Both the position numbers and the translations under genes were made by a program. From Octopus vulgaris (Eukaryota), in the NCBI GenBank assembly GCA_951406725.2, contig OX597837.1, forward strand, positions 45,322,001 through 45,386,000: a stretch of DNA of 64,000 nt, read 5' to 3'. The notes beneath the pieces were generated by a model, which ran no database searches, was not told the origin of the DNA, and saw nothing but the letters and a program-made list of their open reading frames with translations. This document shows positions 9,828 through 56,836 of the stretch, one piece after another (positions within the stretch are counted from its first letter, which is position 1; each line of letters opens with the position of its first letter).

Positions 9828-10016
9828 ATTAGCTGAGATGGTAAACGTGTTTAATTTTCATTCCATTTCATGAATTTATCCTCTTTTTGTGTATCTAGCA
9901 CTCGCTTCTTTATTTGGAAGCCTTTTAATGTATTTCTGTATGAATAATATATAGTCTAATGACTAATTCGTCTTTTGTTGTGGGTCACTGGTAATAATAA
10001 TTTATTTAAGAAGTAA

Positions 10017-10260
10017 ACAAAAGCCGTTCGATTCACTTCAACATTGAAGTTTAATTTGTCAAAATATTTTTGCCAGTGAACAGGTCGCGGTCTGAAAGCG
10101 ACGAAAATATTTTGACAAATTAAACTTAAATGTTGAAGTGAATCGAATGGGCTTTTGTGTGTTTCTTAAATGGCTTACAAACACCTTCCACGCTGCAATT
10201 GTTTTCGTTCCAGCACACGATCTCAGATCAAATCACTTGCTATGCAAGTACATCTCCGTA
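10017..10260 (+). mobile_element. Short Penelope-like pLTR-type element with an inverted 5' arm and a G3-C8 hammerhead
   Basis: 10021-10070 is an inverted copy of 10104-10154. The body is near-identical to the reverse complement of 35002-35195 and ends in (TA)n. Confidence 0.7.
10069..10119 (+). ncRNA. Type I hammerhead ribozyme, G3-C8 core variant
   Basis: TTTGCCA-GTGAACA-G-GTCGC-(ggtctgaaa)-GCGAC-GAA-AATATT-T-TGACAAA; one mismatch in stem I. Confidence 0.6.
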
Positions 10261-10309
<49 letters not shown>

Positions 10310-15301: not shown

Positions 15302-15500
15302 TAACTTGGAAGCCATAACTTTGGCATAGTGTGAATGGACGATTCGGGTTTTATTATTCACTGTATCTAGCCAGAGTGCTGTATCTAGTACTGGTAGCCT
15401 ATGGTTAATGTGTTTCGTAGGGTAATCTATCGTGACCTTAATACTCTGGTGGATGGAGTTAGCTATTTGCTGGATGCTCTCCATAGTATTGGTTTCTATT
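15302..15500 (-). mobile_element. Penelope-like element reverse transcriptase fragment
   Basis: IANSIHQSIKVTIDYPTKHINHRLPVLDTALWL...IVHSHYAKVMASK matches the C-terminal PLE RT motifs (LPxLD ... YxKP-like). Confidence 0.75.
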
Positions 15501-15814
15501 AGTTTCTAGTTGTGTAATGCCAAGGAAATTTCCACATTCGTACTATTTCATGGTTGGACTTCTTCGGAGTTAAAAAAAGAGCTAACTCCATTTAGGTGAT
15601 CATCATATCTTTTGAGGGATGTGTATACTGTTAGCGGGTTCAAGTTAAAAAACATGTTTGGAGATTCTATTTGATCGGTAGGTTTTGAATATTGGAGGAT
15701 ATGTACATATATATGGATATGTATATATATGTACATATATAAGATGTTTTAATTAGTAAACATATAAATAAATAGAAATAGAAATAATAAAAAATAAAAA
15801 AATAAAAATAAATA

Positions 15815-20970: not shown

Positions 20971-22075
20971 TTGAAAACTACGTTAAGGGTAAACGTGACT
21001 GTGGAGTATTCAGCCACTTGCACGTTAATTCCACGAGCAGGCTGTTCCATTGGTGGGATCAACTGGAACCCTCATCATCATAACCAATGGAATGCCTTGA
21101 GAACTATGTTAAAGGTACGCATGTCTGTGGAGTACTCGGCCACTTGCACGTTAATTACACGAGCAGGCTGTTCCGTTGATCGGATCAACTGGAACCCTCA
21201 TCATCATAACCAATGGAATGCCTTGAGAACTATGTTAAGGGTACGCATGTCTGTGGTGTACTCAGCCACTTGCACGTTAATTTCATGAGCAGACTGTTCC
21301 GTTGGTGGGATCAACTGGAACCAACATCATCATAACCAATGGAATGTCTGTGGAGTACTCGGCCACTTGCACATTAATTTCACGAGCAGGCTGTTCCATT
21401 GATCGGATCAACTGGAACCCTCATCATCATAACCAATGGAATGCCTTGAAAATTATGTTAAGGGTACATGTGTCTGTGGAGTACTCGGCCACTTGCACGT
21501 TAATTTCACGAGCTGGCTGTTCCGTTGGTGGGAGCAACTCGAACCCTCGTCGTCGTAACCAATGGAATGCCTTGAAAACTATATTAAGGGTACGCATGTA
21601 TGTGGAGTACTCGGCCACTTGCACGTTAATTTTGCGAGAAGGCTGTTCCGTTGATCGGATCAACTGGAACCCTCATCATCATAACCAATGGAATGCCTTG
21701 AGAACTATGTTAAGGGTACACATGTCTGTGGAGTACTCGGCCACTTGCACGTTAATTTCACGTGCAGACTGCTCCGTTGGTGGGATCAACTTGAACCCTC
21801 ATCATCATAACCAATGGAATGCCTTGAGAACTATGTTAAGGGTACGTGTGTCTGTGGAGTACTCGGCCACTTTCACATTAATTTCATGAGCAGGCTGTTC
21901 CATTGATCGGATCAACTGAAACTCTCATCATCTTAACCAATGGAATGCATTCAGAACTATGTTAAGAGTATGCGTGTCTGTGGAGTACTCGGCTACTTGC
22001 ACGTTAATTTCACAAGCAGGCTGTTCCGTTGGTGGGATCGACTCGAACCCTCGTCGTCGTAACCGACGGAGTGCT
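20971..22075 (+). repeat. Nine-unit tandem array of 126-bp SINE-D tail monomers
   Basis: Unit starts at 20971, 21097, 21223, about 21346 (5'-deleted), 21446, 21572, 21698, 21824 and 21950. Confidence 0.95.
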
Positions 22076-34573: not shown

Positions 34574-35001
34574 ATACACGAAAAATCGAAAACAAATAAA
34601 AGCAGGAAAGAGAGATGCGTGTTCACGGGATGCAGAGAAAAACACATTTGATTGCAAATATCTCTTCGTATAATGGAAAGAGTGTAGAGTAGCAGAAAAT
34701 TGGGGCTATTACAAGATGTTTAAATTCCGCAACATGCAAAAGGCGAATACATCTAAAGAAAATATTATAAACGGAGACACGAACATTCGAACTTCACACA
34801 CGTACTTACACAAAACTTATAATGTATCTATCTAGCTAACTAGCTACATATATGTGTGTGGGGGAGGGGTGCATAGAAGGTTGAAAAGTGTATCAGGAAA
34901 ATACGACAAGGTAGAAAAGGCTAAAATAATTTTATCATGAAGAACATTTTAGTACTGGTTTCAGATATATATATATATATATGTATGTATGTATGTATGT
35001 A

Positions 35002-35210
35002 TTACGGAGATATACTTGCATAGCAAGTGATTTGATCTGAGATCGTGTGCTGAAACGAAAACAATTCCAGCGTGGAAGGTGTTTGTAAGCCATTTAAGAA
35101 ACACACAAAAGCCGTTCGATTCACTTCAACATTTAAGTTTAATTTGTCAAAATATTTTCGTCGCTTTAAGACCGCGACCTGTTCACTGACAAAAATCCAT
35201 GCTGCATCAT
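35002..35210 (-). mobile_element. Second copy of the G3-C8 hammerhead-bearing short element, within TA-rich repeats
   Basis: The reverse complement is near-identical to 10070-10260. Confidence 0.8.
35143..35193 (-). ncRNA. Type I hammerhead ribozyme, G3-C8 core variant
   Basis: rc: TTTGTCA-GTGAACA-G-GTCGC-(ggtcttaaa)-GCGAC-GAA-AATATT-T-TGACAAA; 7-bp stem I, 5-bp stem II and palindromic stem III. Confidence 0.7.
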
Positions 35211-35234
35211 ATATAAATAAATATATATATATAA

Positions 35235-35279
<45 letters not shown>

Positions 35280-35401
35280 AATAAAACATGTGACAATTAT
35301 TATGGATACCGAATAATTGTCACATATTACATTTACAGATAAATTCCTCTATTTACGTAATATCGAGGTCTCTTTCATTCTTTTGTTGTCTTACCTTTTT
35401 C

Positions 35402-37176: not shown

Positions 37177-37458
37177 TATATACATACATATACACATACA
37201 CACCTATACATATGTAGATTATATAAATGTACGTGTATATACTATACGTATATATATACAGGTTCGTGTGTGTATGTATGTGGGTAGAGAGGGAGGTGAG
37301 AAAGAAGAGAGAGATGGGAGAGAGTGGGAGGTGGAAATAGACGCAAGAGAGCAACTTCTCTGAACATTATACGGTTCAGTGAAGAAAAGAACCGGCTAAA
37401 GATGGTGAGTTGCGATATGACACACACATAAATAATATCTCCGCTTTGAAACAAGACT

Positions 37459-38537
37459 TTGATATGAGAGAACGAAAGACAGAGAGAATCGCAGATAAAT
37501 AATTACATCACAGTTAGTTTATTGCCATATCATTAGGTTATGTGCCGTAACTGCCATCTGATGGTGGGTCCTTGGTTCGGGGGTTCGTGGGTTTTGGAAA
37601 GTGTGGAAAAAAAACCTCTCAGCTACTATTATTGCCAAGCCTACTCTGACTCGGTGTAGTTACACATGTCACGCTGTCCTCTAACGGTTAATTACCATAT
37701 TTTGGAATTCCCTCCAGGAAAATGTCACCCATAAACATACCCACAAACCCCGGGCAGATAAGGAGCTTAGGCTTTTTTATCTCTGCTCGTATAAAATAGA
37801 GCAAATCCCTATAAGTCCTCCCTCCTGATAAATGCTGGATCCCGGACAATTGTTGCACCAGATAAGACATTGATATGAGAGAACGAAAGACAGAGAATCG
37901 CAGATAAATAATTACATCACAGTTAGTTTATTGCCATATCATTAGATTATGTGCCGTAACTGCCATCTGATGGTGGGTCCTTGGTTCGGAGGTTCATGCG
38001 TTTTGGAAAGTGTGGAAAAAAAACTCTCAGCTACTATTATTGCCAAGCCGACTCTCACTCGGTGTAGTTACACATGTCATCGTGTCCTCTAACGGTTAAT
38101 TACCATATTTTGGAATTCCCTCCCGGAAAATGTCACCCATAAACATACCAACAAACCCATGGCAGATAAAGAGCTTAGGTTTTTTTTATCTCTGCTCGTC
38201 TAAAATAAAACAAATCCCCAGAAGCCCTCCTTTCTGATAACTGCTGGACCCCGAACACTTGTTGCACCAGATAAGACATTGATATGAGAGAACGAAAGAT
38301 AGAGTTTATTATATTGAGGTTGTAAGTGATTACAGGAATGGCCAATCAACGGTTAATTACCATATTTTGGAATTCCTCGAAAATGTCACCATAAACATAC
38401 AAACCCATTAAGAGCTTAGGTTTTTTATCTCTGCTCGTCTAAATGTGACCCCGAACACTTGTTGCACAGATAAGACATTGATAGGAAACGAAAGATAGAG
38501 TTTATTATATAGGTTGTAAGTGATTGGAATGGCCAAT
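37459..38537. repeat. ~410-bp tandem duplication plus a deletion-riddled partial third copy
   Basis: gatatgagagaacgaaaga occurs at 37461, 37872 and 38281; 38349-38537 repeats 38092-38346 with many gaps. Confidence 0.9.
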
Positions 38538-56762: not shown

Positions 56763-56836
56763 TGGCCAGTGTAGGGCTGGAACCCATGACATTCGTGTTG
56801 TTAGCGCGACGCTCTAGCCAACTGAGCTAACAGGCC
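56763..56836 (-). pseudogene. tRNA-Ile(AAT)-like pseudogene whose anticodon reads AAC
   Basis: rc GGCCTGTTAGCTCAGTTGGCTAGAGCGTCGCGCTAACAACACGAATGTCATGGGTTCCAGCCCTACACTGGCCA; mismatches in the acceptor, anticodon and T stems, and an altered B box. Confidence 0.8.

Follow-up and report, generated by a model that had tools for sequence, protein, structure and literature searches.

A fixed G3-C8 hammerhead variant in the terminal repeats of a Penelope-like retrotransposon from Octopus vulgaris

RESULTS

Element copies in the window

The window, i.e., the whole 64-kb stretch of Octopus vulgaris DNA analyzed here (contig OX597837.1, positions 45,322,001 to 45,386,000), contains two hammerhead motifs, one on the minus strand (35143–35193) and one on the plus strand (10069–10119). 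When the window was scanned with a relaxed descriptor in which positions 3 and 8 were left free, exactly these two sites were returned. The minus-strand motif belongs to a truncated element copy (35002–35210, minus strand), which comprises the last ~150 bases of a pseudo-LTR (pLTR) followed by a ~59-base tail and is inserted in TA-rich DNA. It is 93% identical to both ends of a full pLTR-ORF-pLTR copy (L182), and its best 40 genome matches show 96–100% identity. A second truncated copy (10066–10261, plus strand) is 96% identical to the first over 196 bases and carries ORF codons at 10170–10262 (plus strand). Its 5' end is abutted by an inverted partial copy (10004–10070, minus strand), a structure typical of Penelope insertions (PMC8557442).

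Several other features of the window were recorded. A short perfect inverted repeat (35283–35325), predicted as a hairpin, lies beyond the TA run flanking the first copy and is not part of the family. Tandem repeats are located at 1433–1880 (period 184), 20971–22064 (period 126), and 37453–38304 (period 409), and a tRNA-like match was found at 56763–56836 on the minus strand. Positions 15302–15502 (minus strand) hold a fragment of the reverse transcriptase (RT) region of sister family B described below, with 85% amino-acid identity over 66 residues.

Anatomy of the hammerhead motif

Judged by sequence and fold, the minus-strand motif is a minimal type I hammerhead. Stem I consists of 7 bp (35187–35193 paired with 35143–35149) and is followed by the core strand GUGAACA (35186–35180), in which G3 is located at 35186 and C8 at 35181. 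An unpaired extra G (35179) between A9 and G10.1 precedes the 5-bp stem II (35178–35174 paired with 35164–35160). G12-A13-A14 (35159–35157), the palindrome AAUAUU (35156–35151), and U17 (35150) complete the motif, and hammerhead numbering places the predicted cleavage site 3' of U17, between 35150 and 35149. The motif thus combines stems I and II, G10.1-C11.1, an extra nucleotide after position 9, GAAA, a palindromic 15-16 region, and H17. The consensus core CUGANGA (or UUGANAA) is not matched, but a Watson-Crick pair at 3-8 is present as G3-C8. The C3-G8 pair is a textbook contact of the active hammerhead. In the second copy, G3 and C8 are located at 10076 and 10081, and stem I contains one mismatch.

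An earlier note on this DNA had described two type I copies with a swapped core, and both were recovered where it had placed them, the stem I mismatch included. Its account of the stems, core, palindrome, and U17 was accurate, whereas the unpaired G at 35179 had been overlooked.

For the minus-strand copy, stems I and II form the minimum-energy fold calculated by RNAfold (−14.5 kcal/mol, z −2.6, equaled by 3 of 200 shuffles). The plus-strand copy (10069–10119) folded no better than shuffled sequences (z −0.21). A local Rfam scan of 34990–35215 gave no hammerhead match at E ≤ 10, and among the 150 of 461 matches listed from the whole-window scan only microsatellite-driven miRNA matches and the tRNA were seen. 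The palindrome can be extended to 10 bases (AAAAUAUUUU) and could in this form sequester A13, A14, and U17. Cofolding of two monomers predicted a strand-swapped duplex of −32 kcal/mol; a hammerhead dimer lies beyond what the program scores.

The parent element

The parent element was located by a genome search with a motif upstream of the hammerhead. Some copies extend further upstream, across a microsatellite-rich repeat stretch of ~950 bases, and reach the end of an ORF that encodes a C-x3-C-x2-C linker together with an endonuclease of the GIY-YIG type. At 29 of 30 endonuclease loci, the hammerhead motif was found 923–1236 bases downstream on the same strand, in all 29 cases with G3-C8; at the remaining locus it was out of range. 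A genome search with the Pfam GIY-YIG model yielded other Penelope families and a partial copy of the studied element in only 1 of 30 loci, and thus missed the parent. A locus with three copies 3.4 kb apart (L135) turned out to be a tandem duplication of larger size that lacks the ORF.

One locus (L182) holds a whole pLTR-ORF-pLTR copy with direct repeats of 1118 bases that are 98% identical. The element plan derived here is a pLTR of ~1.1 kb, an ORF of more than 1000 amino acids (RT and GIY-YIG), and a second pLTR. Open frames of 1025 and 839 amino acids are present in L176 and L177, respectively. The motifs DKSG, GGAIG, YVDD, the C-x3-C-x2-C linker, and YQI...YIGETS...H..DCH were recognized in the ORF. 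No Pfam family was recognized in it, and its identity is based on these motifs, the architecture, and homologs named as RT-domain proteins. Among named proteins, the closest homolog comes from Octopus vulgaris itself and matches the genome at 99–100%.

In L182 the start codon lies ~92 bases after G3, inside the region corresponding to 35002–35210, so that positions 35093–35001 of the window (minus strand) correspond to codons 1–31 of the RT/GIY-YIG ORF (tblastn, 87% identity to the N-terminus of L182, E 3e-14). Among 335 distinct matches in the collected loci, 124 had their 3' end at query positions 147–153 and 158 at positions 205–209. These two clusters, ~59 bases apart and located inside the ORF start, are common to ORF-bearing and short copies. 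An inverted partial copy was found upstream in 15 of 30 loci, and such inverted partial copies have been described for Penelope insertions (PMC8557442).

The element therefore shows the features of EN+ Penelope-like elements, namely an ORF with RT and C-terminal GIY-YIG, flanking direct pseudo-LTRs, a 3' tail, and inverted 5'-truncated copies. The C-x3-C-x2-C linker is a Neptune/Nematis feature (PMC8557442); the quick tree used in this study was built without reference elements. Since tail ends, ORF codons, and inverted partial copies all match a Penelope-like element, the piece at 35002–35210 is, on sequence grounds, a 5'-truncated Penelope-like insertion and not a separate non-coding element. 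The ~200-bp non-coding or retrozyme-like element proposed earlier is not supported, as the piece represents the truncated 3' end of an RT/GIY-YIG element and includes 31 of its codons. Recently active Penelope families of O. vulgaris have been listed, in a main text that makes no mention of hammerheads (PMC13282606).

Upstream of the motif, a branch-point/acceptor-like sequence (CTAAC...TTTCTCAG; L105–L134) stops exactly at the usual start of the short copies and has 497 exact matches in the genome. Drosophila Penelope carries an intron. The octopus sequence may be an intron end of the same kind, or an initiator.

Fixation of G3-C8

In the 2.8-Gb genome, 6792 exact matches to both core flanks were found, compared to 2 for a reversed control pattern, which excludes chance as the origin of the motif. 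Among the first 100 flank-match sites listed, 82 had the GUGAACA core and 93 had G3 and C8 jointly. Genome-wide, 7106 of 7816 fixed-flank sites (91%) are G3-C8, while 228 are altered at position 3 alone, 458 at position 8 alone, and 24 at both. G3 is thus lost in ~3% and C8 in ~6% of sites. Only two of the 24 double-changed sites are C3-G8, one being a decayed family copy and the other a member of another family. The former (L320), the sole copy of the studied family with C3-G8, looks like a post-insertion change.

Single losses are spread over the subfamilies and fit neutral decay. The C8G copies were considered as an intermediate subfamily, which was rejected because they are scattered through old and young subfamilies. 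Young copies diverge from the majority sequence by ~1.8% and old copies by 4.7%, and both groups are G3-C8. The G3-C8 core was also present in the loose-end consensus of contigs from organisms A, C, and D. Together with the 29 of 29 ORF-linked motifs in range, the genome-wide counts answer the check called for in the earlier note, that G3 and C8 both be fixed, and bear out a swap that is fixed in the terminal repeat of a Penelope element and escapes searches for CUGANGA.

In a sample of 97 copies, one third of which had been selected on fixed stem flanks and thus in part by stem letters, subfamily-level changes affected 0 of 42 structured sites and 5 of 9 loop II sites (Fisher p 5e-5). The difference between structured sites and the adjacent non-coding spacer was not significant (0/42 vs. 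4/49 changed, p 0.12). The earlier note had regarded a lack of conservation above background across copies as a refutation. This is the wrong test because inserted copies decay neutrally; the informative comparisons are those among subfamilies and sister families.

Covariation of positions 3 and 8

Sister family B shares 56% protein identity with the studied element and is its sister in the quick tree (SH-aLRT 96). Its motif occupies the same place before the ATG, and the core reads CUGAUGC in all 51 motifs, which come from 30 of 30 loci. The extra G and a stem II of GUCAC/GUGAC were likewise found in 51 of 51 motifs and U17 in 50 of 51. Alongside C3-G8, a C at position 9 (A9C) is fixed in all 51. 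As the A9C replacement shows, the clade tolerates departures in the core, and this may mean weak selection on catalysis. Family B (L196–L225, e.g., L201:58–100) is very young and has an open frame of 1312 amino acids with an asparagine-rich insert.

In an older relative, family B', C3 and G8 were present in 28 of 30 loci (core CUGAAGA), the loci having been picked by likeness to one copy, and 25 of the 30 encode a B-like ORF start. GUGAACA and CUGAAGA differ at positions 3 and 8 alone, both by transversions. In both B and B', one G-C pair of stem II is replaced by A-U, a compensatory change. An old B-related terminal repeat (L311) has a decayed hammerhead-like core, which suggests further families in the clade.

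Homologs with 27–43% identity were collected from metagenomes. The motif was found in sense beside the ORF in 5 of 17 loci (U3-A8 in three, A3-U8 in one, and C3-G8 in one), using a descriptor that had been tuned after inspection of motifs by eye and that gave 0.11 matches per shuffled set. In 12 of 17 loci, many of them short contigs, no motif was found. The A3-U8 case has the core AUGACUA behind a homologous Penelope ORF (L228:2810–2850, plus strand), and its stem I is weak. In a distant Penelope family of the octopus genome, a scan that required a Watson-Crick pair detected a U3-A8 motif in 18 of 30 loci. In a distant young Penelope family (L091–L097), a separate ORF lies ahead of the RT/GIY-YIG frame of 781 amino acids, and both terminal repeats contain a minimal hammerhead of the U3-A8 type in which the palindrome reads ACAUGU.

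A Watson-Crick pair occupies 3-8 in every one of the eight family-level motifs (permutation 36/40320); as B and B' are not independent, the test was repeated without B' (7 motifs, p 0.0024). U4, G5, A6, G12, A13, A14, A15.1, and U16.1 are invariant across all eight. The covariation of positions 3 and 8 anticipated in the earlier note is thus seen across related families (C-G, U-A, and A-U vs. G-C). The occurrence of all four Watson-Crick pairs within one clade argues for a selected hammerhead fold. As far as comparative sequence evidence goes, G3-C8 is a real, fixed, compensatory variant of the Penelope terminal-repeat hammerhead.

DISCUSSION

Relation to known hammerheads and elements

Minimal type I hammerheads in the pLTRs of metazoan Penelope-like elements were described by Cervera and de la Pena in 2014 (PMC4209133). 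The octopus motif shares with these the pLTR location, an extra nucleotide between 9 and 10.1, G10.1-C11.1, a palindromic helix III region, the frequent U17, the prevalence of solo truncated copies, and natural 3-8 covariation, which in their case is U3-A8. None of the 56 aligned representatives in the supplement of that study starts with G3, in contrast to the G3-C8 core of the octopus family. The extra nucleotide is G in the octopus family and H in their consensus, with G in the Nasonia row, and the 7-bp stem I is longer than in their hammerheads. A natural compensatory 3-8 change was also reported by Perreault et al. in 2011 (PMC3088659), where the passages compared describe U3-A8 and neither G3-C8 nor A3-U8.

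The closest functional counterpart is PAc, a Poseidon element of Anolis carolinensis (Frangieh et al., 2024; PMC11167929). Both elements have a pLTR hammerhead near the start codon and AT-rich targets, and the PAc tail is delimited by two reverse-transcription starts within the ORF, which match the two-end pattern of the octopus copies. The motif lies ~92 bases before the ATG in the octopus element and across the ATG in PAc, and the octopus protein has the cysteine linker of the Neptune/Nematis type, unlike PAc. G3-C8 is an engineered rescue in PAc, whereas it is the wild type of a family of thousands of copies in the octopus. The tail of the octopus element (~59 bases) exceeds the 30–40 bases published for Penelope-like elements.

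The G3-C8 named in PMC3884650 is an engineered variant as well, and the literature comparison also took in PMC6765202, PMC8495972, and PMC6155905. In the parts of the published literature covered, engineered variants were the only G3-C8 hammerheads found and no A3-U8 was found; the 2017 survey by Lunse et al. lay outside this scope, so that novelty is provisional. That survey reportedly dealt with about 150,000 Penelope-associated hammerhead variants.

Proposed origin and function

The copy at 35002–35210 is most probably what a truncated insertion has kept of the 3' end of an autonomous Penelope-like element, whose terminal repeat contains a minimal hammerhead with G3-C8. This hammerhead probably retains weak cutting activity, as a dimer or aided by the protein of the element. 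By analogy with the tested Penelope element, the two fixed 3' end points would correspond to two internal starts of reverse transcription. The template of most short copies would be an RNA beginning ~17 bases ahead of stem I and left uncut until it was copied. Two motifs could pair via the AAUAUU palindrome, forming helix III, and the G3-C8 pair would then position the 2'-OH of residue 8 as C3-G8 does, allowing slow cleavage after U17. Such cleavage would trim tandem or read-through transcripts. G3-C8 itself appears to be derived, and it would have been fixed in the master lineage before the old and young subfamilies split.

The copies themselves bear on how the RNA is used. In a sample of 89 hammerhead-containing copies that was selected on the motif, 85 start at most ~20 bases before stem I with the whole motif and 4 extend upstream. 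As the whole motif is kept in these 85, reverse transcription would usually have used a short RNA that had not been cut. Of 33 copies reaching the common start, 14 have a G where the template has a C, and this extra G may be a copied cap. Among the TA-flanked copies whose truncation falls near the motif (n = 34), the start coincides with the predicted cut in 4, is no more than one base away in 3 others, and lies upstream in 2 and downstream in 25, a distribution that is confounded by TA microhomology.

Penelope minimal hammerheads cleave poorly in vitro, and do so as dimers (PMC4209133). In Anolis, cleavage requires the protein of the element; C3G or G8C abolishes activity, and the double mutant C3G/G8C partly restores it (PMC11167929). 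According to the same report, cleavage is dispensable for insertion in vitro, and RNA ends did not map to the cut site. The poor cleavage, the merely partial rescue, and the insertion without cleavage would also suit a hammerhead-derived fold that does not cut and has been retained for another role of the terminal repeat (protein binding, or a 5' leader or promoter structure), with the 3-8 pair serving shape alone. The 85 of 89 copies made from uncut RNA, U17 together with the competing 10-base palindrome, and A9C in family B point in the same direction. We nevertheless regard a non-cutting fold as unlikely, because positions 3 and 8 are in contact in the active conformation (PMC3088659) and have stayed Watson-Crick through four pair types, and because the eight core positions listed above are unchanged in all family motifs. 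The few truncated copies starting at or within one base of the predicted cut, compared with two upstream, also speak against it, subject to the microhomology just mentioned. Given the fold, there is a good chance that slow cleavage occurs, assisted by dimer formation or protein, and the octopus motif is likely a natural form of the self-cutting variant otherwise made in the laboratory.

Animal non-LTR retrozymes, for which an origin from Penelope terminal repeats has been proposed, consist of short tandem type I hammerhead units (bioRxiv 10.64898/2026.07.22.740005). Comparable arrays occur in the octopus genome (L003, L016, L017, L018, L022, and L139), each with the hammerhead part of the terminal repeat and a TA run and with a tail on the final unit. 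The existence of such hammerhead-only units of ~166–196 bases (L016, L017, L022) and the great excess of short copies over upstream-extending ones (4/89) could be taken to mean that the ~200-base piece replicates independently via its own circular RNA, as a non-coding unit of the retrozyme or SINE-like kind. This seems very improbable, as the piece matches the end of an autonomous element at 93% identity and includes the first 31 codons of that element, and both 3' ends coincide with those of ORF-bearing copies. In contrast to retrozymes, the two copies of the window occur singly (one is joined to an inverted 5' part) and contain ORF codons, and an autonomous parent is present in the same genome. 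The arrays are better read as secondary, retrozyme-like derivatives of the Penelope-like element, in which a dimer would be able to form within one transcript. A chance resemblance within a repeat that contains an imperfect inverted repeat might be argued from the missing Rfam hammerhead match and the poor folding of the second window copy. It is hardly credible, since the homologous site holds canonical C3-G8 cores in sister families and L231, with the same placement relative to the ORF.

Implications

Penelope pLTR hammerheads and natural U3-A8 pairs were already known, and the octopus G3-C8 hammerhead is not a new kind of system. What is new, provisionally, is a natural G3-C8 family; to our knowledge, the swap is otherwise known solely from rescue mutants made in the laboratory. 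That a family in nature keeps the swap through several subfamilies, beside sisters with C3-G8, provides evolutionary support for the 3-8 contact. With long open frames in the same genome, the octopus family also offers a test case for whether Penelope hammerheads must cut. Hammerhead descriptors should accept any Watson-Crick pair at 3-8. As a broader and only tentative proposal, which we put at somewhat below even chances, a recently mobile octopus retrotransposon would contain an active wild-type G3-C8 hammerhead new to print, from a clade that has sampled all four Watson-Crick 3-8 pairs, and its slow core would be tuned so that most RNA is copied before being cut. If this is true, consensus-based searches would have overlooked a whole layer of genomic ribozymes.
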